Origin: a virus
Taxonomy: Duplodnaviria; Heunggongvirae; Uroviricota; Caudoviricetes
Reading direction: 5' to 3' (one strand)
IMG/VR virus record: IMGVR_UViG_3300016484_000447
Coordinates: 1-23,772 of that record
DNA length: 23,772 nucleotides
Shown: one piece after another, positions 1 through 13,067 of the stretch
How positions within the stretch are numbered: the stretch's first letter is position 1
Layout of the letters: each line of letters opens with the position of its first letter
Translations under genes and position numbers: made by a program
Notes under the pieces: generated by a model
What the model saw: only the letters and a program-made list of their open reading frames with translations
Told to the model about the DNA's origin: nothing
The model's database searches: none

Positions 1-98
1 TCGAGTGTCGGTTCCTCCTGCTCTGGCATCGGGCCACCGTAGTAGACCTCTAGCTCCCAGTCTTCTTGCGGACGAAACCTGTCCCACGGACTGTTCAT
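1..98 (-). CDS. Hypothetical protein, N-terminal part only (MNSPWDRFRPQEDWELEVYYGG...), runs off the window
   Basis: Hand translation; ATG at 98 overlaps upstream TGA (ATGA) and follows a GGAGG SD. Confidence 0.6.
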   Translation of the reverse strand, partial: MNSPWDRFRPQEDWELEVYYGGPMPEQEEPTL

Positions 99-271
99 CC
101 GACCTCCCAGCACTTGATTTCTCCGCAATGCTTGCAGCGGAGTACGTAGCGTTTGTACCGACGAAGCACACCGCCTACACGGTCTTCGACTTGGATCACC
201 TCCACGGTGTCCCACTTGTGATCGCAGCGGTGGAACGTGCCGACGATCAGGCGATACAGGAAACCGATCAC
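95..271 (-). CDS. Small Cys/His-containing hypothetical protein (58 aa, GTG start)
   Basis: GGAGG SD then GTG at 271 overlapping upstream stop (GTGA); C-D-H and CKHC motifs; ORF-track start at 358 rejected. Confidence 0.6.
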   Translation of the reverse strand: MIGFLYRLIVGTFHRCDHKWDTVEVIQVEDRVGGVLRRYKRYVLRCKHCGEIKCWEVG

Positions 272-468
272 TTCGTCACCTCCAGTCGATAGATGTCCTC
301 GTCCAGCACTTCGCACCAGACGGGGCGAGGGTCGCCGATCTTCTTGAACTGGTGCCATGCCCCGCTCTTGCCGACGTAGATCAGCTTGTCACTCTGGTAG
401 CGCCAGTTGTACTTGCCGCCTCGAACGAGGTCAGAGGGCTTCAGGCCGTTGCTTTGGGTGTCTTCCAT
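268..468 (-). CDS. Hypothetical protein (66 aa)
   Basis: ORF with GGAG SD, packed between coupled genes. Confidence 0.7.
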   Translation of the reverse strand: MEDTQSNGLKPSDLVRGGKYNWRYQSDKLIYVGKSGAWHQFKKIGDPRPVWCEVLDEDIYRLEVTK

Positions 469-469
469 G

Positions 470-718
470 TCAAATCTCCTTGATGCGGGTGATCTTCAGG
501 TAGCGGGTGTAGTCACCCGGGTCGTAGCGGTCGTAGTACAGGCAGTCCGTGTTGATGTACTCGGATTCGATGTCCAAGTCAGCCCACCCGTCAGGCCACT
601 TCACCTTGGCCCTGTCCATGATGTCGGACAGCGTGGCAGAGTTGGCGATGTAGAACTCTTCGTCCGTGTCATCGGGCTCGAAGCTGTCGATTCCACGGCT
701 GTCTTTGTAGTGGCCCAT
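470..718 (-). CDS. Acidic hypothetical protein (82 aa)
   Basis: AAGGAG SD, phage-like codon usage, tight packing. Confidence 0.75.
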   Translation of the reverse strand: MGHYKDSRGIDSFEPDDTDEEFYIANSATLSDIMDRAKVKWPDGWADLDIESEYINTDCLYYDRYDPGDYTRYLKITRIKEI

Positions 719-730
719 GTCAGGCTCCTT

Positions 731-961
731 TCAGTCGAATGTAAACTCCATCGGCTCAGGCGGGCCGATGAAGTCGTTGGCTCTCTGCTCTGCTGCTGCT
801 GCGTGGTACACAGGGCACTGCTCACAGCCCCACGGGTACACGCAGTCGAACTCGCCCCAGTAGTCCCGGGAACCTTGACACCCGGCGTTGACGATCTTAG
901 GCCACCCCTTCTGGTGTCGCATCGGGGGTTGGGCTTTGTTCCAGTCTGAGGGCCTGTTCAT
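731..961 (-). CDS. Cys-containing hypothetical protein (76 aa)
   Basis: Start overlaps upstream stop (TGATG); C..C..CxxC pattern. Confidence 0.7.
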   Translation of the reverse strand: MNRPSDWNKAQPPMRHQKGWPKIVNAGCQGSRDYWGEFDCVYPWGCEQCPVYHAAAAEQRANDFIGPPEPMEFTFD

Positions 962-1323
962 CAGATCAGGTAGGCAAGGCCGATGAGGCAGAAGATCACG
1001 CCCACAGGCAGCAAGCTGCGAAGATGAACGGGCAGAAGGCGATGCCGTAGTCGCCCCGCTTGAACTCGTGGTAGGCTTCGACAGAGAAGGCCCACAGCCC
1101 GAAGAGGCACGAGACGAGTCCGATCAGGACTGAGGCCCAGAGGATGATGTACTCTCCGAGGCTCATGTCGCAGCTTCCGCAGGGCTTCTTGGGCGACGTA
1201 GGTCACGACGCACATGATGTAGGCGACCAGGGCAACATCCATCCACCCGTTGTTGCGGCGGACGAGGACGAAGAAGCCCGAGACGAGGATGGCAGCATAC
1301 ACTGCCAGAACGATGAAGAACAT
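961..1323 (-). CDS. Hydrophobic membrane-protein region; probably two small membrane-protein genes (1323 start and 1166 start) rather than one 120-aa ORF
   Basis: N-terminal 50 aa hydrophobic; nested out-of-frame ORF 996-1166 (MSLGEYIILWASVLIGLVSCLFGLWAF...) is more protein-like than the middle of the long frame. Confidence 0.5.
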   Translation of the reverse strand: MFFIVLAVYAAILVSGFFVLVRRNNGWMDVALVAYIMCVVTYVAQEALRKLRHEPRRVHHPLGLSPDRTRLVPLRAVGLLCRSLPRVQAGRLRHRLLPVHLRSLLPVGVIFCLIGLAYLI

Positions 1324-1333
1324 GGGGAACCTT

Positions 1334-1849
1334 TCAGTGGTTTTCTTGGATGTCGAAGGTGTAGTAGTCGGTGAACTCGCCGAAGCTGTTCACCACACGC
1401 TTGTTGGGGTTGTGGAAGACCGCAAGGCGGTTTGGGGCGTAAAGCTCTTCGAGGTAGCTCATCAAGTCTTGGTAAGCCAGGATGGCAACGCAGTTTGCAG
1501 GGGAGAGGTCGGCGTGAACGCCAGCGAAGGTTGCTCCAGTGGCGATGCAGTCGTCAAGGAACAGGTACTTCGACACCCTACAATCGCCCTTGTCGTGGAA
1601 CATCGAGATGGATTCTCCGTGACTGGCTTCGCCAGCCTTGCGGGCGATGATGAACGGGATGTCGCACAGCATCCGCATGGCGAAGGCCACAGAATAGCCC
1701 GACGTGCCACGCACTGCCACTGCCTCTGCCCCAGTCTTCTCCATCAACTTGGGGAGACACTCTGCGAGCTTCTGGACGAGGATGCGGAAGCGTTCAGGAT
1801 TCAGGCCCAGGGCGGAGTAGGTCGTGGTGTAGATGTGGGTCGAGTGCAT
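1334..1849 (-). CDS. Type I phosphoribosyltransferase (PRPP-binding) family protein
   Basis: PRPP-binding loop YLFLDDCIATGAT; N-terminal VAVRGTSG and ARK motifs. Confidence 0.8.
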   Translation of the reverse strand: MHSTHIYTTTYSALGLNPERFRILVQKLAECLPKLMEKTGAEAVAVRGTSGYSVAFAMRMLCDIPFIIARKAGEASHGESISMFHDKGDCRVSKYLFLDDCIATGATFAGVHADLSPANCVAILAYQDLMSYLEELYAPNRLAVFHNPNKRVVNSFGEFTDYYTFDIQENH

Positions 1850-1876
1850 GTCTTTCCTCTGTTGTGCGATTCAGTG

Positions 1877-1904
1877 ATTATGGCACGGGCTGAAGACCTG
1901 TCAA
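1877..1904 (-). promoter_or_regulatory. Sigma70-type promoter for the PRTase operon
   Basis: TTGACA-N16-CATAAT with TGn extended -10. Confidence 0.7.
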
Positions 1905-1926
1905 GTACTTTCGTCTCAGAAATGAG

Positions 1927-1952
1927 AAAAGCCGCTGTCTCCCGACAGCGGC
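1927..1952 (-). terminator. Rho-independent terminator
   Basis: GCCGCTGTC-GGGA-GACAGCGGC 9-bp hairpin followed by TTTT on minus strand. Confidence 0.8.
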
Positions 1953-2101
1953 CCTTCCTTCTCACTCGCAGTGATTCGACGCTTCCCAGCGTAGCAGTGC
2001 TTCCCAGCATGGCTCTAGGGGACTGCCTAGGATGTCCACAGGCTAGCTACAGCGTTGCCCCAGCATGTAGCCTTAGCCTACACATCTTCCTGCGCGGAAG
2101 A
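1927..2101 (-). ncRNA. Candidate ~178-nt structured small RNA with its own promoter and terminator
   Basis: Promoter at 2108-2136, terminator at 1927-1952, no SD-preceded ORF, nearly fully base-paired. Confidence 0.65.
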
Positions 2102-2107
2102 TGCCCC

Positions 2108-2136
2108 ATTGTATCACTGAAATCGGGGTTTGTCAA
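2108..2136 (-). promoter_or_regulatory. Strong sigma70-type promoter; -35 sits inside a GGGGTT-N4-AACCCC inverted repeat
   Basis: TTGACA-N17-TACAAT with GTGA before -10. Confidence 0.8.
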
Positions 2137-2387
2137 CCCCCTTCAGCCTTTTTCTTGTCGATTTCTCGCCACTGCGCCACCACCTTCTCCATGTCGAAGC
2201 CGTGGGGATTGAAAACCGCCCCATCTTCGCGGATCAGGACTGCCACAGCGACGTGGTTCACTTGCGGGTAGCCCGCTTCAGTCGTTCCGGTGATGACACC
2301 GGGGCCGACAGGGCTGTCCTTGACCGGATCACCGACTTGCAGGTAGTCCGGGTTCATCTCGTGTTGTTTTTCTGCAACATCAGTCAT
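2133..2387 (-). CDS. Hypothetical protein (84 aa, MTDVAEK...)
   Basis: GGAGG SD before ATG 2387; stop TGA lies within the downstream TTGACA. Confidence 0.7.
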   Translation of the reverse strand: MTDVAEKQHEMNPDYLQVGDPVKDSPVGPGVITGTTEAGYPQVNHVAVAVLIREDGAVFNPHGFDMEKVVAQWREIDKKKAEGG

Positions 2388-2407
2388 CGTTGTCCTCCAT
2401 TTGCCTC

Positions 2408-2854
2408 TTACGGCATCACCCACAGGTTGAGTTCGGCGTTCGGGTGCTGGGTCTTGAGGATGATGTCCTCGACAACATTCCACTTACCACCGCCGAGGCC
2501 ACAGCCGATGAGAGGAAAGTTGACTGCTGACCCGGTGAGGTGTTCGATGCCCGCCACGAACTCGAAGACCTCGCGCACAGCGTCGTAGTCCACGTACTTC
2601 TTGCCATCGCGCCCGTAGAACTCCTGCGTCACACCGTTGATGACCGTTGTAGTTCCGTCCGTCCAGAACGTGCAAGTCCCGAGTCGCAGCTTGCCAGCTT
2701 GGAAGGCTTTCATGTACTCGACGTAGGCGTCAGGGAACTTCCGCTTGATCGCCAGCGCAACGCCAGACCCCATCACACCCTGCGCATTGCAGCCGTGGAC
2801 GATGATGCCCTTTGCCGAGGTGATGTCACCTCGAACTTCGTTGATCCTGCTCAT
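2408..2854 (-). CDS. Macro-domain protein (ADP-ribose processing; TARG1/DarG-like subgroup)
   Basis: Motifs VRGDIT, IVHGCNAQGVMGSGVA, FPLIGCGLGGGKW; ATGA overlap start at 2854. Confidence 0.85.
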   Translation of the reverse strand: MSRINEVRGDITSAKGIIVHGCNAQGVMGSGVALAIKRKFPDAYVEYMKAFQAGKLRLGTCTFWTDGTTTVINGVTQEFYGRDGKKYVDYDAVREVFEFVAGIEHLTGSAVNFPLIGCGLGGGKWNVVEDIILKTQHPNAELNLWVMP

Positions 2855-3057
2855 TGGCCCTTCCTCTTCAAGTGGATGTCGAACCCAGCCAGGGAATGCC
2901 CACACACGTCGCCACGGAAGTCGAACTGTACTGTCACGGTCGGGACTACTTGTGAGACGACGTACCCTGGGTTCGCTTTTTCAAGCTCTTCCTTCAGGAA
3001 CGCTTCCACTTGAGCCTTGGTCAGCTTGACCATCAGGTTGTTGAACACCAGACTCAT
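2851..3057 (-). CDS. Hypothetical protein (68 aa)
   Basis: Coupled ORF in operon. Confidence 0.65.
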   Translation of the reverse strand: MSLVFNNLMVKLTKAQVEAFLKEELEKANPGYVVSQVVPTVTVQFDFRGDVCGHSLAGFDIHLKRKGQ

Positions 3058-3239
3058 AGCCCGAACCCCTCATTGTCCCCGTCGTCGTGGTTGGAGATGT
3101 ACCGCTTGCAGCTTCCGTCTGCCTCGACAGGCGGAGTCATGAAGAAGCTCTGCCGCCACGGATTCTGCGGCGCAGTGTGGCGATAGCACGCCCGCTTCTT
3201 CAAGCAACCCTCCCCGCCGCACATGGTAATGTCGGCCAT
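3054..3239 (-). CDS. Small Cys-rich phage protein (MADITMC...CYR...C, 61 aa)
   Basis: TGATG overlap with upstream gene; four spaced Cys suggest metal binding. Confidence 0.7.
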   Translation of the reverse strand: MADITMCGGEGCLKKRACYRHTAPQNPWRQSFFMTPPVEADGSCKRYISNHDDGDNEGFGL

Positions 3240-3601
3240 CAGTCGCTGCTCCAGCTTGAAGAGCCGGAGTCCGACGAACACGACGAGTAGGAGTCGCCCG
3301 TGGACGTGGACTCGTAGCACGGTGTTGGTGCCGGGCTCGGCGCAGGCTCGTAGTACACAGGCGCGGGCGCAACGCACACGCCGTCCGTGTTCGACAGCAT
3401 GACCCCGACAGCCACCACCGAGGAAAAGTCGGCGCAACCGGCGTCTTGGACGACAGTCACAGTGCTGGTGTCGCTGCTGACAGCCCTGAGAGGGCTGACG
3501 TAGGCGGGTTGATTGGCACCGCTCTGGAAGCGAGCCTTCCCGGTGCATCCGGGTCGCTTGTTGCAGCGGTTGTACCACTTGCAGTCACACGGTTTGTTCA
3601 T
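3239..3601 (-). CDS. Hypothetical protein with N-terminal Cys cluster and Ser-rich low-complexity C-terminus (120 aa)
   Basis: AAGGAG SD before ATG 3601. Confidence 0.7.
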   Translation of the reverse strand: MNKPCDCKWYNRCNKRPGCTGKARFQSGANQPAYVSPLRAVSSDTSTVTVVQDAGCADFSSVVAVGVMLSNTDGVCVAPAPVYYEPAPSPAPTPCYESTSTGDSYSSCSSDSGSSSWSSD

Positions 3602-3893
3602 GGTTCTCCTTCTCAGGGTTGAGACGTGCAGCCCAGCGTGCTTTCGCAAGGGCTACAGTCTGCTTCATCGTGATTTCGACGGCGCCAAGGGCAACGGCTT
3701 TGGCACGCTTTCCCGTAGCCACGTCGAAGTGTTCTTTCCACGTCCCCTCTTCCTGAAGCCAGTCTCGGGACATGCCCAGATTGTAAGCCATTTTCAGCAA
3801 CTCTTCGGTGCTGTCAGCCGTCATGTGGCACATTTTCATGCGCCCCAGCCTGCCCATGTTGGTCAGGTGCATGTCATCGACGTAGACTGTCAT
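3585..3893 (-). CDS. DUF4031-family protein
   Basis: MTVYVDD...CHMTAD..EEL...A..LG..R.W.Q....EHFD pattern recognised from memory of the family. Confidence 0.75.
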   Translation of the reverse strand: MTVYVDDMHLTNMGRLGRMKMCHMTADSTEELLKMAYNLGMSRDWLQEEGTWKEHFDVATGKRAKAVALGAVEITMKQTVALAKARWAARLNPEKENHEQTV

Positions 3894-4099
3894 CCTCCAC
3901 GGACTCCCATGATCTTCAGAACCATGTCCTCGGCATCTCCGAGGGCAACACGGGCTCTGAAAACGTCTGATGCAGCCTTCATTGCCCTGTTCCCGTTGAC
4001 AGTCTCCTGCGTGAGACGCCTTCCGTCCTCTTCGAGTTCCTGTTGCAACGCGAACAGGGCGCCATTCAGCAACTGAATGCCGTTCAGCCGCTCCTTCAT
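3890..4099 (-). CDS. Hypothetical helical protein (69 aa)
   Basis: Coupled to rtcB stop and to the DUF4031 start. Confidence 0.65.
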   Translation of the reverse strand: MKERLNGIQLLNGALFALQQELEEDGRRLTQETVNGNRAMKAASDVFRARVALGDAEDMVLKIMGVRGG

Positions 4100-5373
4100 C
4101 AGTTTCCCTTCACGCAGAGGACAGCCTTCAGGACGTGAACGACTTCCACCAAGTCCTTCTGAAGCTCCATGACGACATCCAGACGCTTGTAGGCGCCGGG
4201 GATTTCATCCAGCACTGCGGAGTCCTTCCGGCACTCCACGCCATCCGTCTGCTCGATCAGGTCTTGCAGGGAGAACCGGCGCTTCGCTTCAGCCCGGGAC
4301 ATCGCCCGCCCCGCACCGTGCGAACACGAACAGTAGCTGTCGGCGTTGCCCTTGCCACGGACGATGTAGGACTGCTGACCCATCGAGCCAGGGATGATGC
4401 CCATGTCGCCCTCGCGTGCGCGGATTGCGCCCTTGCGCGTCACCCACAGGTTCTGCCCGAAGTGGTTCTCACGGGAGATGTAGTTGTGGTGGCAGTTGAT
4501 GGCTTCACTGGTCACGGTGAACTCCACCGGGACGTGCCGACGCAGAGCCGCCAGGACGACAGTCATCATCTCCTTGCGGTTCTCCAGGGCGTAGTCCTGC
4601 GCCCACTGCACCGCGTCCGTGTACGCCTTGAAGTCGTCGTCGGCTTCCGGGATGAAGGCGAGGTCGCCATCGGGCAGGGTGATGTAGAACATCTCCATCT
4701 TGCGCTTGGCCTTCTCGATGTAGTAGCTGCCGATCATGTTGCCGACGCCACGGGAGCCCGAGTGCAGCATGACCCACACGTCGTCGTTCTCGTCGGTGCA
4801 GAGTTCGATGAAGTGGTTGCCGCTGCCCAGCGTGCCAACTTGGCTGACGCTCTTCTTCAGGAAGGCTTCCTCGTCCTTGAACGGCACCTTGGCGGATTCC
4901 GGGGCGCTCTTGAACAGGTCGCTCCGCGCCGCGATCCAGATGCTTCGCTCCAGGCCATCGACGTTGTGGCTTCCACCAGTGCCCATCGGGATGTCACGCT
5001 CGATTTGCGAGCGGATGGCCTTCAGGTTGTCGGGCAGTTGGTGCGCCTTCAGCGACAGGCGGACGGCGTTCATGCCGCAGCCCAGGTCAACGCCAACGGC
5101 AGAGGGGATGATCGCGTTCGTGGTCGGAACCACGGAACCCACGGTCGCACCCTTGCCCAGATGGGCGTCGGGCATCAGGGCCACGCCCTGCGGAGCGATG
5201 AACGGCAGACGTGCGATGTTCTTGGTCTGTTGCAGCGCCGCGTCTTCCACGTCGATGACCGTCACCTTGTCGTAGTGGTTGACCCCGAACTCGTCTTCGC
5301 GTCGAACTTTGGACTCCTTCGTGCCCAGCCATGCCTTGATGGGCTTTGCGCCCTCTTCGCGGGTGACGATCAT
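4099..5373 (-). CDS. rtcB: RtcB RNA ligase (3'-phosphate/2',3'-cyclic phosphate to 5'-OH, GTP/Mn dependent)
   Basis: MPDAHLGKG, VGVDLGCG, GTLGSGNHF, LHSGSRG, HHNY, IPGSMG, SHGAGR motifs; AAGGAG SD before ATG 5373. Confidence 0.95.
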   Translation of the reverse strand: MIVTREEGAKPIKAWLGTKESKVRREDEFGVNHYDKVTVIDVEDAALQQTKNIARLPFIAPQGVALMPDAHLGKGATVGSVVPTTNAIIPSAVGVDLGCGMNAVRLSLKAHQLPDNLKAIRSQIERDIPMGTGGSHNVDGLERSIWIAARSDLFKSAPESAKVPFKDEEAFLKKSVSQVGTLGSGNHFIELCTDENDDVWVMLHSGSRGVGNMIGSYYIEKAKRKMEMFYITLPDGDLAFIPEADDDFKAYTDAVQWAQDYALENRKEMMTVVLAALRRHVPVEFTVTSEAINCHHNYISRENHFGQNLWVTRKGAIRAREGDMGIIPGSMGQQSYIVRGKGNADSYCSCSHGAGRAMSRAEAKRRFSLQDLIEQTDGVECRKDSAVLDEIPGAYKRLDVVMELQKDLVEVVHVLKAVLCVKGN

Positions 5374-5386
5374 CTTTCTCTCCTTC

Positions 5387-5527
5387 TCAGCGTCTTGAAA
5401 ATCGAACAGCCCACAGTATACCGTAGGCGAGAGCCACGTACATCGCAAGTGGCGCCAAAGCCACACACAGGATGATGACGGCTGGGGCGGGAAGAGCCCG
5501 CCCGCTTCGGCTGAATCTACGGCTCAT
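5387..5527 (-). CDS. Small single-pass membrane protein (46 aa)
   Basis: Hydrophobic core VIILCVALAPLAMYVALAYGILWAV flanked by Arg-rich ends; fills the gap between genes. Confidence 0.5.
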   Translation of the reverse strand: MSRRFSRSGRALPAPAVIILCVALAPLAMYVALAYGILWAVRFSRR

Positions 5528-5792
5528 TGGAGCCCGCCCCCGGAGCGAGCTTCGCCCACTCTCCACGCTCAAGGAACCCGACGCACTTCCACTTTGCACA
5601 TTCGCAGCAGCAGTCGTGCATCTCCTTGCCGTGAAAGCCGAGGTACTCGTCATGCACGGAGTACATGAACTCTTCGGTCTTCCCCTGGACAGGTGCCACG
5701 ATGAACGAGTAGGCGTCGTTGATCCTCAACAGCCAGTGCCCGTTCACCTCGTCTTGTCGCCAATGGTAGTCAGAGAGCCTTTTGCGAGCCAT
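5517..5792 (-). CDS. Hypothetical protein with CCCEC motif (91 aa)
   Basis: AAAGG SD, tight packing. Confidence 0.65.
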   Translation of the reverse strand: MARKRLSDYHWRQDEVNGHWLLRINDAYSFIVAPVQGKTEEFMYSVHDEYLGFHGKEMHDCCCECAKWKCVGFLERGEWAKLAPGAGSNEP

Positions 5793-5802
5793 GTCGAACC
5801 TT

Positions 5803-5958
5803 TCAGTAGCGTCTGGTGGCCTTGAACTCCGTGTTCCAGCCGTCGATCCACCTCTGGGCGGACACCGTGCCCGCCTTGTGGGGACATTGTGCCACAGACT
5901 TTCCTTCGGTGAAAGCCTTTCTTCCAGCCTCGTATGGAAAGTACCAGTGCGCCGCCAT
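5803..5958 (-). CDS. Rmf-like small protein (51 aa), below ORF-track cutoff
   Basis: Hand translation MAAHWYFPYEAGRKAFTEGKSVAQCPHKAGTVSAQRWIDGWNTEFKATRRY; Y..G..A...G....CP.......W..GW pattern. Confidence 0.65.
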   Translation of the reverse strand: MAAHWYFPYEAGRKAFTEGKSVAQCPHKAGTVSAQRWIDGWNTEFKATRRY

Positions 5959-5959
5959 G

Positions 5960-7219
5960 TCAGCCCTTCTTCAGCAGGTAGCTGTTCGAGATGGCCTTGA
6001 AGCTGAAGTCCCGCTTGTTCGACTTGAACACCACACCCTCGCGCTTCACGCCCTTGTTCATGCCAGGGCCTTCGGCGTAGGCCAGGATGCTCTCGACCAT
6101 CGCACGGGCTGACTCTTGCGGAGTCAGGCTGGCATCAGCCTCGTGCCGGAACTCCTTCAGCGACATGCGACGTTCCAGAACTGGCACGTAACTCAGGCAG
6201 GCGAACTCAGTCGCAAGACGTGCAGCAACCGGGCGCAGGTAGGTGCCCTCGGTGATGTTGAACACGTCGAAGACGTGCCACCCGTAGCCGCTGACTTGCT
6301 CGTGGTTCTGCTGGATCGACGGCGCGATCAGTTCCCCTTGGAAGGCGACCGCTTCATCCGGTTGCGCACCCAGGGCGATCTTCTCGATGATGCGGTGTTC
6401 GCGCACGAACTGGCTGAAGTGGTTGTCACCGTCGATGTCCAGTTCGATGTTGCGACTGCACACGCCCGACAGGTACTCAGGCTTCGGTGCAGGCCAGAAC
6501 CGCGACTTGATGGAGTCGATCACCCGACCGAACAGGCCCATCTTCGCACGACGCTTCTCGTCACGCTCCTTCAGGATTTCGGCGTACAGCGGGTTCTCCT
6601 TGCCGATCACGTAGACCGTCATGGAAGAGCCGTCCAGCTTGATCGTGGCCTCGAAGGTTTCTTCGTCATCGACTGTCGGGATCAGGTGGATGTAGTTCTG
6701 CACCCGCTCTTGGTCGGTCTTGCGCAGGAACCACGGGAAGGCACGAGTCTTGCTTGCCTGCGACGGCCCGCCCTTCTCGGACTGTTGCACCTCCAAGGGC
6801 TCCCACTTCTCGACCTTGAGAATGTCGGTCACGTCGTCGCCCTCGTTGTAGAACAGGCCGGGGCCGACAGACGCCTTGAACGGGCTCGTGCTGACTTCCA
6901 CAGTCGTCCCCATCAGTTCGGGGAACTGGCTCGTGGACAGTATCAGGCCCTGCGACAGTTGCTTGCGCAGCTTGATCGTCTTCAGGCGCATCCCGCGCTT
7001 CGTGCCCCAGTTGGTGAAGCGTTCCTCGAAGGAAGCGTACACCGGGTTGCTGGCGTCCAGCCACGAGTCCACCTCGAAGTAGACCACGAGGTCGCCCACG
7101 GCGAATTCGCCCTTCTTGACGACGACAGACCAGCCCAGGACATCGGCGACTTCGATCAGGTCGGCGCCGGGGATCGGGCGCAGGCCCGTGACTCGTTGAA
7201 TGCTTGCGAGTTTACGCAT
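5960..7219 (-). CDS. ATP-dependent RNA ligase, DRB0094/Rnl2-like family with N-terminal OB-type domain
   Basis: MRKLASIQ N-terminus, motif I KLDGSS, FQGEL, FDV, REGVVFK, FKAISNSYLLK. Confidence 0.9.
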   Translation of the reverse strand: MRKLASIQRVTGLRPIPGADLIEVADVLGWSVVVKKGEFAVGDLVVYFEVDSWLDASNPVYASFEERFTNWGTKRGMRLKTIKLRKQLSQGLILSTSQFPELMGTTVEVSTSPFKASVGPGLFYNEGDDVTDILKVEKWEPLEVQQSEKGGPSQASKTRAFPWFLRKTDQERVQNYIHLIPTVDDEETFEATIKLDGSSMTVYVIGKENPLYAEILKERDEKRRAKMGLFGRVIDSIKSRFWPAPKPEYLSGVCSRNIELDIDGDNHFSQFVREHRIIEKIALGAQPDEAVAFQGELIAPSIQQNHEQVSGYGWHVFDVFNITEGTYLRPVAARLATEFACLSYVPVLERRMSLKEFRHEADASLTPQESARAMVESILAYAEGPGMNKGVKREGVVFKSNKRDFSFKAISNSYLLKKG

Positions 7220-7244
7220 GTTGTTTCTCCTTCTCGTTCGGCCT

Positions 7245-7520
7245 CTAGTTCGACTCGTCGTGCATGTCGCAGATGGTCAATCCGCCCTCCTCGGCGCTTG
7301 GCAGTTTTCGCACTTCGACCTCATAGCGATTCCCGTGGTTGTCCGTCACCAGCCGTGCAGTGCCAGGAGGCGCCCACTCCATCAGTGCGCCAATGAACTT
7401 GCTTGTGTAGTCCGTCTTGCTCGCCCAGGTGCCGCGGTCGCGCTTGCTCACCGTGCCCAGATACAGGCGGTCTGTCAGCGGTGACACACCGATGTGCAGT
7501 TCCTCAAGTTTCACAGTCAT
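7245..7520 (-). CDS. Hypothetical protein (91 aa, MTVKLEELHIGVSPLT...)
   Basis: GAGG SD before ATG 7520. Confidence 0.7.
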   Translation of the reverse strand: MTVKLEELHIGVSPLTDRLYLGTVSKRDRGTWASKTDYTSKFIGALMEWAPPGTARLVTDNHGNRYEVEVRKLPSAEEGGLTICDMHDESN

Positions 7521-7554
7521 CCTCTCTCGGCGCGTGGCCGAACTGGTCAATCGA

Positions 7555-7902
7555 TCAGACCGGGCTGCGCCCGGCTCGTTCATTTCTTGTGTTACGTGAC
7601 CCTATCCAGCGTCTGTACGCCTCCATTTCCCATGTGTTCCCAGACTCATCCACGACTTGAAACACAGGGGACACGAACACGTACTCTCTTCCGTACAGGT
7701 TTCCATCTAGCAGGCTTACGGGGCTAGTGCTTGAAACCAACCCTTCCGGGAATCCGTCTTCACCCTCTTCCCAAGACTCTGACACATGCCAAGCTATGAT
7801 TGGGTTGTCAGTGTCTATGTAGACTTTCCCATCACAATCTGAAACCATGAAGTACCCCGGCACTGCCGTGATCATGTTTCGTGCGTGCCGCCTCGTCTTC
7901 AC
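7555..7902 (-). CDS. Hypothetical protein with lower GC and atypical codon usage (start may be 7875, MITAVPG)
   Basis: ORF overlaps vWA stop; A/T-ending codons frequent. Confidence 0.55.
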   Translation of the reverse strand: MKTRRHARNMITAVPGYFMVSDCDGKVYIDTDNPIIAWHVSESWEEGEDGFPEGLVSSTSPVSLLDGNLYGREYVFVSPVFQVVDESGNTWEMEAYRRWIGSRNTRNERAGRSPV

Positions 7903-9194
7903 TTGTAGGTGTACCAGCCGAAGATGGTGTTGCCGACGACGACGCTGCCGCGCTGCGGAGTGCCGGTCTTGCTGTCGCGGGCCTCTTGGCGCGTGCTGAA
8001 CACGTTCACAGGGCGACCGTTGACGGTCGGGAAGAGGCTCTTGGGCGCCTGGGCCTTCGGAATCGGGCTTGCAGTCGGACGGGTGTTGCCGACGACGGCT
8101 GGCAGAACCGGGACTGCGGGTGCCGCAGGGGCCTTCGGCGCGAACTTGTCGATGTCCTCCTGGGTGAACGGCACACCTTGCTTCTCCCAGTAGATCACGC
8201 CCACGTTGTCGGGCAGCAGCCTGTTCAGCGACTCGCTCTGGATGAAGATGTCGTAGTTGCCGTGGTCGCCAGGGTGGACGCGAGCGTTGCTCGTCGGGTC
8301 GGTCGGCATCCCGATCATCTGGCGGGCTTCCTTGCCAGCGAAGATGCGGTGCGGTGCCTGACGCTCACGAATCAGCACGATCTTCTTCGGGCCGATCTTG
8401 GGCTCGGTCTTCACCAGTTGCACGAACGCGGCGCCCTTGAGGAACTTGCTGCGCTTGCTCAGGATGAAGTCGTCGATGCGCAGGCGTGCGGTGCCGTTCG
8501 AGTTGGGCACTTGGTACAGGCTCACTTCCGAGGTGATGTCGGTCAGCTTCGACACGTCCACCGCTGCGGCGTTGGTGTAGAACGACGACGAAGACCGGGC
8601 ACCAGCCGAACGGGCGGCGTAGTACGCAGTGGTCGCGGCCTGGGTCGCCACGGTGGCCTTTGCCATGCCTTCGCGGGTCGTCTCCCACTCCAGCACGTTG
8701 CCATCGGGGATGCCGATGGCCGTCGCGTGATGTGCTGCACCGCGAGGCATACGGGCGACGAAAGTCCAGCGACCAGTGGCCTGAAGCTCTTCGATCTTTC
8801 GGCAGAGGTTGGTGGCGCTTCTGCGCTTCGAGTGGCTCTCGCGCCCGTCTGTCGTGATGAAGATCAGGAACGACACGTCCGGGTTGGAGTAGTCGGGGAG
8901 CTTCTCGTGCAGTTCGATGGCATCCCAGATGCCGTCGTACAGCGGGGTGCCGCCCGGCGTCGGCCAGGAAGTCTCTTCGCGCATGACGTTCGGGTTCGAG
9001 ATGACGTACTTCCGCACGACGCCCGAGTCTCCGTCGAGGCCGACACCGAAGGCCGAGACGATGGTGTCCAGACGCTCCTTGGTAGCGGCATTGGCGATGG
9101 ACATGCGGTTGGCGTTCGAGTCGGCCAGGGCCATCTTTGCGATGCCGTGCATCGAGCCGCTGTGGTCGTCCACGAATGCGATGTAGTTCTTCAC
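7899..9194 (-). CDS. von Willebrand factor A (vWA) domain protein with uncharacterised C-terminal half (431 aa, GTG start)
   Basis: MIDAS elements DHSGS, GGTPLYD, ITTDG; AAGGAG SD. Confidence 0.85.
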   Translation of the reverse strand: MKNYIAFVDDHSGSMHGIAKMALADSNANRMSIANAATKERLDTIVSAFGVGLDGDSGVVRKYVISNPNVMREETSWPTPGGTPLYDGIWDAIELHEKLPDYSNPDVSFLIFITTDGRESHSKRRSATNLCRKIEELQATGRWTFVARMPRGAAHHATAIGIPDGNVLEWETTREGMAKATVATQAATTAYYAARSAGARSSSSFYTNAAAVDVSKLTDITSEVSLYQVPNSNGTARLRIDDFILSKRSKFLKGAAFVQLVKTEPKIGPKKIVLIRERQAPHRIFAGKEARQMIGMPTDPTSNARVHPGDHGNYDIFIQSESLNRLLPDNVGVIYWEKQGVPFTQEDIDKFAPKAPAAPAVPVLPAVVGNTRPTASPIPKAQAPKSLFPTVNGRPVNVFSTRQEARDSKTGTPQRGSVVVGNTIFGWYTYK

Positions 9195-13038: not shown

Positions 13039-13067
13039 AGTGTAGCACAGCTTTCAGCCTTTGTCAA
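13039..13067 (-). promoter_or_regulatory. Leftward sigma70-type promoter
   Basis: TTGACA-N17-TACACT with TGTGC before -10. Confidence 0.8.

Follow-up and report, generated by a model that had tools for sequence, protein, structure and literature searches.

A probable small RNA gene with its own promoter, a conserved multi-hairpin fold and a nearly invariant terminator in a tailed phage from IMG/VR

Small RNAs encoded by phages have been found in numbers, and for very few of them is a function known. In phage lambda, transcription from pR' to tR' yields a 194-nt '6S' RNA until Q acts, and analogous gates are provided by the nut/boxB elements and by the put RNA of HK022. T4-type phages reportedly carry promoter-early stem-loop (PeSL) cassettes (Arbiol et al. 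2010). In virulent Pseudomonas phages, ONT-cappable-seq revealed 29 candidate noncoding RNAs, either derived from 5' untranslated regions or stand-alone, with unknown functions and genus-restricted conservation (Putzeys et al. 2024, PMC10914365). Here we analyze a locus of this general kind at positions 1927-2136 of the genome of an uncultured Caudoviricetes phage from IMG/VR (IMGVR_UViG_3300016484_000447); the window, i.e. the whole stretch of DNA that was analyzed (23,772 nucleotides), is the first 23.8 kb of an 87,772-bp phage record rated complete by CheckV. An initial annotation, made from the sequence alone, had proposed that the locus is a stand-alone small RNA gene of ~178 nt on the minus strand, possibly a sponge for proteins of the CsrA/RsmA type. 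The proposal of an RNA gene is well supported: promoter, folded body and terminator are retained in four lineages, with compensating base changes and without a conserved open reading frame (ORF).

Read along the minus strand, the locus consists of the end of a gene for an 84-aa protein (2387-2133), a promoter (P1), ~178 nt without a credible ORF, an intrinsic terminator, a second promoter (P2) and a gene for a 171-aa protein of the phosphoribosyltransferase (PRTase) fold (1849-1334). P1 (2136-2108; TTGACA-17-TACAAT with a TG extension) agrees with the consensus at 11 of 12 positions, in line with the consensus promoter annotated there initially; its -35 element, bracketed by GGGG and CCCC, contains the stop codon of the upstream 84-aa gene. 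The geometry of promoter and terminator predicts a primary transcript of ~178 nt (2102-1924, minus strand) that would start at A2102 (G2104 is possible) and end within the U-tract, at ~1924-1927. The terminator (block 1952-1921, minus strand) comprises a stem-loop at 1952-1931 with a 9-bp GC-rich stem and a GGGA loop, followed by a T-rich tail (GCCGCTGTC-GGGA-GACAGCGGC plus TTTTCT, 1952-1925; the block ends in UUUUCUCAUU). Within positions 1-8000, this hairpin surpasses every other terminator-like site found on the minus strand; perfect-stem terminators are few in the phage genome, and the sequence of this one is a perfect 22-bp palindrome with a single occurrence in the genome. Behind it lies P2 (1904-1877, minus strand; TTGACA-16-CATAAT), which serves the PRTase-fold gene, so that the earlier description of a strong terminator followed by a fresh promoter for the next gene stands as well. 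On the minus strand of the left arm, consensus promoters were found only at 13067, 2136 and 1904. The P1 region (2108-2145) shares the GGGG-TTGACA-CCCC bracket and the ACAATGGG start with repeated early-promoter cassettes at genome positions 79443-83530 on the plus strand.

Relatives of the locus were reached through homologues of the 171-aa and 84-aa proteins. The RNA unit is present directly upstream of a homologous PRTase-fold gene in five other metagenomic contigs, giving six loci in four distinct lineages: a nearly identical unit in L002, diverged full units in L003, L012 and L015, and a 5'-truncated copy of the L015 type in L011; a further contig, L004, begins just after the terminator. 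The PRTase-fold gene lies 3' of the RNA in every RNA-bearing lineage. In L015, an inserted 332-aa gene of the pRha/ANT antirepressor type (L015:1448-2446) separates the 84-aa homologue from the RNA promoter and, thus, the RNA stays with the downstream gene. P1 is retained in L002, L003, L012 and L015, with a spacer that is partly conserved and, in the relatives, partly palindromic; the -35 and -10 elements of P2 are kept in L003, L004, L012 and L015, with variable spacers. Between the two promoters, conservation is strongly graded. The 32-nt terminator block (1921-1952) is 97-100% identical between lineages, the sole change being GGGA to GUGA in the loop, compared with 76-100% for the 5'-terminal hairpin, 59-83% for the stretch from hairpin HA (see below) to the terminator, 38-54% for the middle domain and 63-68% for the neighbouring PRTase-fold coding sequence. 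A small hairpin, UCUCA-UUUC-UGAGA (1914-1927, minus strand), overlaps the terminator U-tract; GAAAG comes after it, just ahead of the -35 element of P2. The window, L002, L003, L004 and L015 all have this hairpin, which is possibly part of the P2 upstream region; L012 has other pairing there. The L004 assembly breaks exactly at the shared terminator; since this contig was obtained from the sample that also yielded L015, that sample contains two related strains. Samples in which the family occurs are SRR22388079, SRR12825412, JGI 3300050196 and 3300050154, and ERZ28654960.

The predicted RNA has a minimum free energy of -82.5 kcal/mol (z = -3.6), and none of 200 dinucleotide-shuffled sequences folds as well; in the relatives, z ranges from -3.1 to -5.2. 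Seven helices (H1, M1, M2, HA, HB, HC and the terminator) were delineated, in identical order and spacing across lineages, with compensating base changes in at least five of them (H1 and HB, and further ones in M1, M2, HA and HC). H1 (2103-2083, minus strand, as are all the helices) is a 5'-terminal 8-bp hairpin, CATCTTCC/GGAAGATG, with the invariant loop GCGCA; it occupies RNA nucleotides 1-21 in all lineages, starting at or next to the predicted 5' end, and two of its pairs are changed on both sides, from U-A to G-C in L003 and from U-A to A-U in L012 and L015. M1 (2080-2039; UAGGCUA/UAGCCUG, including a U-G pair) starts at nucleotide 24 in every lineage and is compensated in L003 (UAGCAUA/UAUGCUA); its apex is lineage-specific, ranging in relatives from 4 nt (a tetraloop) to 39 nt. 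M2 (2039-2018; (G)UGGAC/GUCC(C)) has one U-C mismatch in the window, which a change of C to A converts into a complete helix in L002 (GUGGAC/GUCCAC); L012 has GUAGAC/GUCUAC, and no counterpart was found in L003. Toward the 3' end, HA (2009-1998; UGCU-GGGA-AGCA) has the core GCUGGGAAGC, invariant in all lineages, and an outer pair that is either U-A or C-G, whereas HB (1992-1979; ACGCU-GGGA-AGCGU) comes with three unrelated stems (ACGCU/AGCGU, GUCGUC/GACGAC and UGCU/AGCA), four pairs being changed on both sides, and a loop that is always GGGA or GUGA. HC (1974-1962; UCACU-GCG-AGUGA) keeps its position and has three unrelated sequences among the lineages. The pairings listed in the initial annotation are all present at the coordinates given there. 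Two of them, however, fare less well in the comparison: CTAGG/CCTAG competes with GUGGAC/GUCC(C/A)C, which is the helix that the relatives support, and the GATGT/ACATC closing pairing is not kept in the relatives.

Between HC and the terminator lies a purine tract, GAGAAGGAAGG (1963-1953, minus strand), which resembles a Shine-Dalgarno (SD) sequence with no start codon behind it and is predicted, in the window, to pair with the U-tract and so lengthen the terminator stem. It contains the 8-mer GAGAAGGA (GAGGAAG in L003), directly followed by the terminator. The same 8-mer plus G is the SD, 5-8 nt before the ATG, of the RNA ligase and RtcB genes and of three other ORFs of this phage (window 7228-7235, 5381-5388 and 3607-3614, minus strand; genome 70111-70118, minus strand, and 36979-36986, plus strand). 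The ORFs on the RNA strand of the locus lack a ribosome-binding site and are not shared among lineages, and the initial observation that no SD-led ORF is present therefore holds. With a promoter and a terminator of its own, a structure maintained by compensating changes and no conserved ORF, the locus has the attributes of a stand-alone phage small RNA gene, and we consider it very probable that it is a real RNA gene under selection.

As to what such an RNA does, we rank first, with a probability of about one in three, a stable trans-acting RNA that binds a protein through repeated tetraloop hairpins, serving as a decoy or a scaffold. The tops of the tetraloop hairpins, GCU-GNGA-AGC or GUC-GNGA-GAC, are near-identical and occur three times, and GGAAG/GGAGA strings are repeated; these look like copies of one site, which is why the decoy or scaffold was placed ahead of the other readings. 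Hairpins with a GNGA tetraloop and a stem of at least 4 bp number 19 in the 87.8-kb genome, both strands included (0.108 per kb per strand), and three of the eight on the minus strand fall within 63 nt at this RNA. Among the loops of HA, HB and the terminator in the four lineages, 9 of 12 are GGGA and 3 are GUGA, with no other tetraloop, and HA lies 46-48 nt from the terminator in every lineage. The genes around the RNA encode RtcB, an Rnl-type RNA ligase, a macrodomain protein, a DUF4031 protein and the PRTase-fold protein, a neighbourhood of RNA repair and, probably, counter-defence genes. Under this mechanism, the host RNA polymerase would start at the near-consensus sigma-70 promoter P1 and stop at the strong intrinsic terminator; the RNA would be made early in infection and accumulate, stabilized by its paired 5' end, which leaves no free 5' end, and by the strong 3' hairpin; and it would then act in trans, with the tetraloop hairpins and purine-rich motifs presenting several copies of one site to an RNA-binding protein of the host or of the phage.

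Several observations weigh against a protein-binding RNA. The covariation statistics are modest with four lineages (the observed score is reached by 61 of 500 shuffles for H1 and by 11 of 500 for HB), and the middle domain is hypervariable at the identity given above. The most conserved block is the terminator, which shows zero covariation, and its conservation could point to transcription control or to a role at the DNA level rather than to a free RNA. Moreover, the distant PRTase-fold homologues in L005-L010, L013 and L014 are not accompanied by the RNA, and the results fit protein binding and RNA-RNA contacts alike. For the invariance of the terminator itself, the possibilities include sequence-specific recognition of the RNA hairpin and, as proposed for PeSL, maintenance of a terminator-plus-P2 cassette by recombination.

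That the locus is not an RNA gene at all, with its palindromes acting in the DNA or its plus strand encoding a small protein, is extremely improbable. A plus-strand ORF of 35 to >63 codons does begin at the same invariant ATG (the complement of CAT in the U-tract) in all four lineages, and the perfect 22-bp palindrome without covariation would suit a DNA-level function. The antisense ORF has neither an SD nor a promoter, however; its peptides share only the first ten residues (MRKAAVSRQR), which are encoded by the invariant terminator block, and are unrelated beyond, and the HA block within it is read in different frames in L012 (LPS) and L015 (FPA), so this ORF was treated as spurious. Furthermore, only an RNA read from the minus strand has the GNRA loops and, in M1 and HA, the G-U pairs, and promoter and terminator are both oriented on the minus strand; thus, the pattern fits a minus-strand RNA only. 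Transcription control without a free RNA function is more plausible, if still rather unlikely: the terminator would end the leftward early operon and insulate P2, with P1 and the terminator forming an antitermination gate or the terminator and P2 a PeSL-type cassette kept by recombination. This would account for a terminator block that is 97-100% identical where the flanking coding sequence is at 63-68% and the RNA middle at 38-54%, and it is consistent with the resemblance of P1 to the right-end early-promoter cassettes (GGGG-TTGACA-CCCC and ACAATGGG), with the partly palindromic P1 spacer in relatives, with the similarity of the GNRA-capped 4-6-bp hairpins to boxB and with a size and layout like those of the lambda pR' transcript. 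Yet regulated read-through would serve little purpose with P2 situated directly behind the terminator, the RNA contains no boxA-like sequence, the terminator palindrome is single in the genome and hence not a repeated cassette, and the compensating changes in H1, M1, M2, HB and HC show selection on the RNA body, unlike in a mere by-product of transcription. Also somewhat unlikely is a base-pairing small RNA of the 3'-end type, which would use a conserved, accessible segment to anneal to mRNAs of the host or the phage, aided by Hfq or ProQ. Small RNAs of the MicL/DapZ type are transcribed from a promoter of their own that lies within the 3' end of the preceding gene, and they end at the operon's terminator; similarly, P1 overlaps the end of the 84-aa gene, and no strong terminator was found between that gene and the present one, a strong hairpin with a U-tail. 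The purine tract is predicted to pair with this U-tail, a feature described for ProQ ligands, and short invariant segments (GCGCA, GCUGGGAAGC and GAGAAGGA) are present. These segments are, however, short and mostly enclosed in hairpins, the longest single-stranded stretches belong to the hypervariable middle, and, if antisense copies of SD sites are disregarded, TCCTTCTC, the complement of GAGAAGGA, is found only once on a sense strand that is transcribed in the phage.

The sponge for CsrA/RsmA raised in the initial annotation would titrate a translational repressor of the host's CsrA family with GGA loops and the AAGGA tract; we regard it as very unlikely. GGA counts are 6, 5, 8 and 8 in the four lineages, i.e. 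3.2-3.9 per 100 nt compared with 1.4-1.6 for the genome (~2.3-fold), GGA is unpaired in the HA and terminator loops, every lineage retains AAGGA or AGGA in the tract that precedes the terminator, and L003 has an ACGGAU hairpin. In addition, the nearest cultured phages, at ~40% identity of the large terminase subunit (TerL), infect Pseudomonas, which has RsmA, and the window gives a weak match to RsmV (10.7 bits, E = 1, gathering score 100). Against dinucleotide shuffles, however, the enrichment in GGA is marginal (p = 0.146, 0.028, 0.057 and 0.076); A(N)GGA is found 1, 1, 4 and 4 times, only once in the window RNA; the GGA in H1 is base-paired (probability unpaired 0.00-0.45); L003, L012 and L015 show no match to Rsm/Csr families at E up to 10; and the host may be a betaproteobacterium, a Limnohabitans phage being equally close by TerL. 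Independent G-to-U changes in the HB loop (L012 and L015) and in the terminator loop (L003) retain GNRA and lose GGA. With GUGA in 3 of the 12 conserved loops, selection therefore keeps a GNRA loop rather than GGA, and the caveat attached to the annotation, namely that GGGA is simply a GNRA tetraloop, is the better interpretation. Known Csr sponges have about twice this GGA density, penta- or hexaloops, and GacA-type promoters rather than constitutive consensus ones. Thus, the RNA resembles the CsrB and RsmX/Y/Z/V sponges (Rfam clan CL00106) in its several hairpins with G-rich loops, a GGA-containing purine tract before a strong terminator and the lack of an ORF, and departs from them in about half the GGA density, tetraloops that tolerate GUGA, the constitutive consensus promoter and the lack of a significant covariance-model match; the conservation pattern does not point to a CsrA sponge, and the RNA probably is not one. 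Very improbable, too, is that the RNA is a ligand or regulator of the adjacent PRTase-fold protein, in the manner of PyrR, or an antitoxin-like RNA of type III. PyrR is a PRTase-fold protein that binds the pyr leader RNA; RNA and PRTase-fold gene are adjacent in all four lineages, even where the ANT/pRha gene is inserted just upstream of the RNA; type III toxin-antitoxin loci and the pyr leader with pyrR are likewise arranged as a promoter, a structured RNA, a terminator and a gene for a protein of ~170 aa; and the nearest sequence match of the protein is the PRTase domain of a regulator, PurR. On the other side, there are no tandem direct repeats, the gene has its own consensus promoter, homologues at 38-51% identity occur without the RNA, and no Rfam PyrR-site match was found in the window. 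The protein itself has a type I PRTase fold like those of APRT, OPRT and PurR, with the motifs VRGTSGYS, ARKxGExSH and LDDxxxTGxT, the last of which is the phosphoribosyl pyrophosphate (PRPP)-loop motif; it was modelled with a pLDDT of 82.6, and its matches are the phosphoribosyltransferases for orotate and adenine and, in PurR, the PRTase domain. Its PRPP-loop motifs are intact, as in the APRT/OPRT enzymes, its fold is not that of ToxN or AbiE, and PyrR is absent from the listed matches. A more specific decoy, for counter-defence or takeover, appears unlikely as well, albeit less so than the sponge: an early, abundant RNA whose GNGA hairpins, SD-like tract and invariant terminator hairpin would mimic a host RNA feature and neutralize an RNA-binding regulator or an RNA-targeting immune nuclease, alongside the RNA-repair genes (RtcB, Rnl ligase, macrodomain and PRTase).

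Several described classes of RNA or RNA-protein systems were considered and rejected. For the RNAs of type III toxin-antitoxin systems (ToxI/CptI/TenpI), tandem repeats of ~34-45 nt would be expected and are not present, and the downstream gene encodes a PRTase fold and has its own promoter. A riboswitch or attenuator leader would run on into the gene that it regulates and have an aptamer core better conserved than its expression platform; here, P2 lies between terminator and gene, the terminator is the most conserved part and the middle the least, and there is no Rfam match. No boxA (CGCUCUUUA-like) with up to 2 mismatches was found on the minus strand of 1927-2103, as a lambdoid nut site would require a few nt upstream of a boxB hairpin. 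A Y RNA (YrlA, of rsr-rtcB loci), for which a neighbouring Ro60/Rsr (TROVE) gene, a tRNA-like domain and pairing of the 5' end with the 3' end would be expected, was dismissed given that no TROVE domain is encoded in the whole phage genome, the two ends are not paired with each other and neither ARAGORN nor Rfam gives a tRNA-like call in this stretch. Finally, a PyrR-like RNA-binding protein is not indicated by the fold search, which returned OPRT, APRT and PurR, not PyrR.

The family appears to be small. A covariance model of the 3' domain recovered only the six known loci (84-108 bits) and no paralogue in the whole phage genome. Rfam searches of the window, L003, L012 and L015, at gathering thresholds and at E up to 10, gave chance-level matches only (miRNA models on the terminator, apart from the RsmV match mentioned above). 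No further members were found in IMG/VR and JGI metagenomes by locus searches with the flanking proteins and the PRTase alignment, and pattern scans for the 5' hairpin or the terminator yielded no further copy; a looser 5'-hairpin pattern had 15 matches in IMG/VR, all within coding sequence and with no hairpin, and a pattern combining HA and terminator had at least 120 matches in GTDB genomes, with the terminator hairpin in none among the matches listed. A weak second match to the 3'-domain model, probably due to chance, was seen at L003:2100-2185 (21 bits, E ~0.004); it includes a UGCU-GUGA-AGCA hairpin, identical to HB of L012 and L015, inside the end of a 78-aa gene and followed by a different terminator. 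Two of the distant PRTase-fold homologues have unusual upstream regions of their own. In L014, a 1.4-kb ORF-poor stretch (L014:90-1500) lies ~570 nt upstream of the homologue, with a 166-aa gene between; it contains GC-rich imperfect repeats (GGGC.. units) and at least three tandem promoter units of the form GGG(G/C)TTGACAA-N17-TACAGT, each followed by a short sequence, with no tRNA and no Rfam match. In L013, ~700 nt of GC-rich sequence without a called gene (L013:350-1058), similarly without tRNA or Rfam matches, lies upstream of the homologue, has long inverted repeats, e.g. GGACCTTCCGGT ... ACCGGAAGGTCC, and may be a large structured RNA.

The leftward arm around the RNA encodes the Rnl-type RNA ligase (7219-5960), RtcB (5466-4099), the DUF4031 protein, a 174-aa protein (3054-3578, minus strand) and the macrodomain protein (2905-2408). 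For RtcB, the SD GAGAAGGA makes the ATG at 5373 (giving 424 aa) a more likely start than the GTG at 5466, which was chosen by the ORF finder. The DUF4031 gene lies between those for RtcB and the 174-aa protein, and the latter is located between the DUF4031 and macrodomain genes in this RNA-repair cluster; its match to a PHROG family of unknown function is limited to the C-terminal 47 residues. The 84-aa protein has no Pfam or PHROG family; its homologues form 18 clusters, which are located on small phage-like contigs and have varied neighbours (P22 NinX, Nmad5, AAA_3). Eleven tRNA genes are clustered at 14-16 kb. No DNA similarity to GenBank phages was found, and at the protein level TerL is ~40% identical to those of Pseudomonas phages, with a Limnohabitans phage equally close; the host is therefore a Gram-negative proteobacterium (Pseudomonadota), possibly a betaproteobacterium.

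The locus is a clean case of a predicted phage RNA with its own promoter and terminator and a seven-helix fold with compensating changes, and the genes around it form an island concerned with RNA repair and, probably, counter-defence. Should it truly be a decoy for an RNA-binding protein or a nuclease of the host, it would be an RNA-based means of takeover or anti-defence in addition to pseudo-ToxI, RNA anti-CRISPRs and phage tRNAs; a regulatory cassette and nothing more would be ordinary. The 32-nt terminator block, conserved amid surroundings of 60-65% identity, is a small puzzle by itself. Compared with the ncRNA candidates of Pseudomonas phages described at the outset, it is likewise short, runs from a host-type promoter to a terminator and lies just upstream of a gene; theirs are abundant, and here P2 follows the terminator, so the RNA is not the leader of the next gene. 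With the lambda '6S' RNA (194 nt) and OOP (77 nt) it has in common a strong constitutive promoter, a short transcript of comparable size that ends at a terminator, and genes located beyond that terminator; it differs in the consensus promoter that comes after the terminator, in the structural selection on the RNA body and in that neither boxA nor a Q-type pause element was found, and, unlike OOP, it is not antisense to a gene. The boxB hairpins of lambdoid nut sites similarly have 4-6-bp stems, a GNRA-type loop and an early promoter upstream of a terminator, whereas here the loops are true tetraloops rather than pentaloops, are present in three copies and come without boxA, and no N-like protein was identified. 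As in PeSL cassettes, a stem-loop terminator with highly conserved nucleotides directly precedes an early promoter, but in this phage the stem-loop is unique in the genome and is preceded by ~150 nt of conserved folded RNA. The nearest described relatives are, accordingly, the promoter-to-terminator RNAs of Pseudomonas phages and the lambda pR'-tR' and OOP transcripts, from which this RNA is set apart by the neighbour's promoter behind it, the conserved multi-hairpin body and the sequence-invariant terminator; it is a new small family, of four lineages and six loci, that adds to a known kind, namely small RNAs of phages whose function is unknown.

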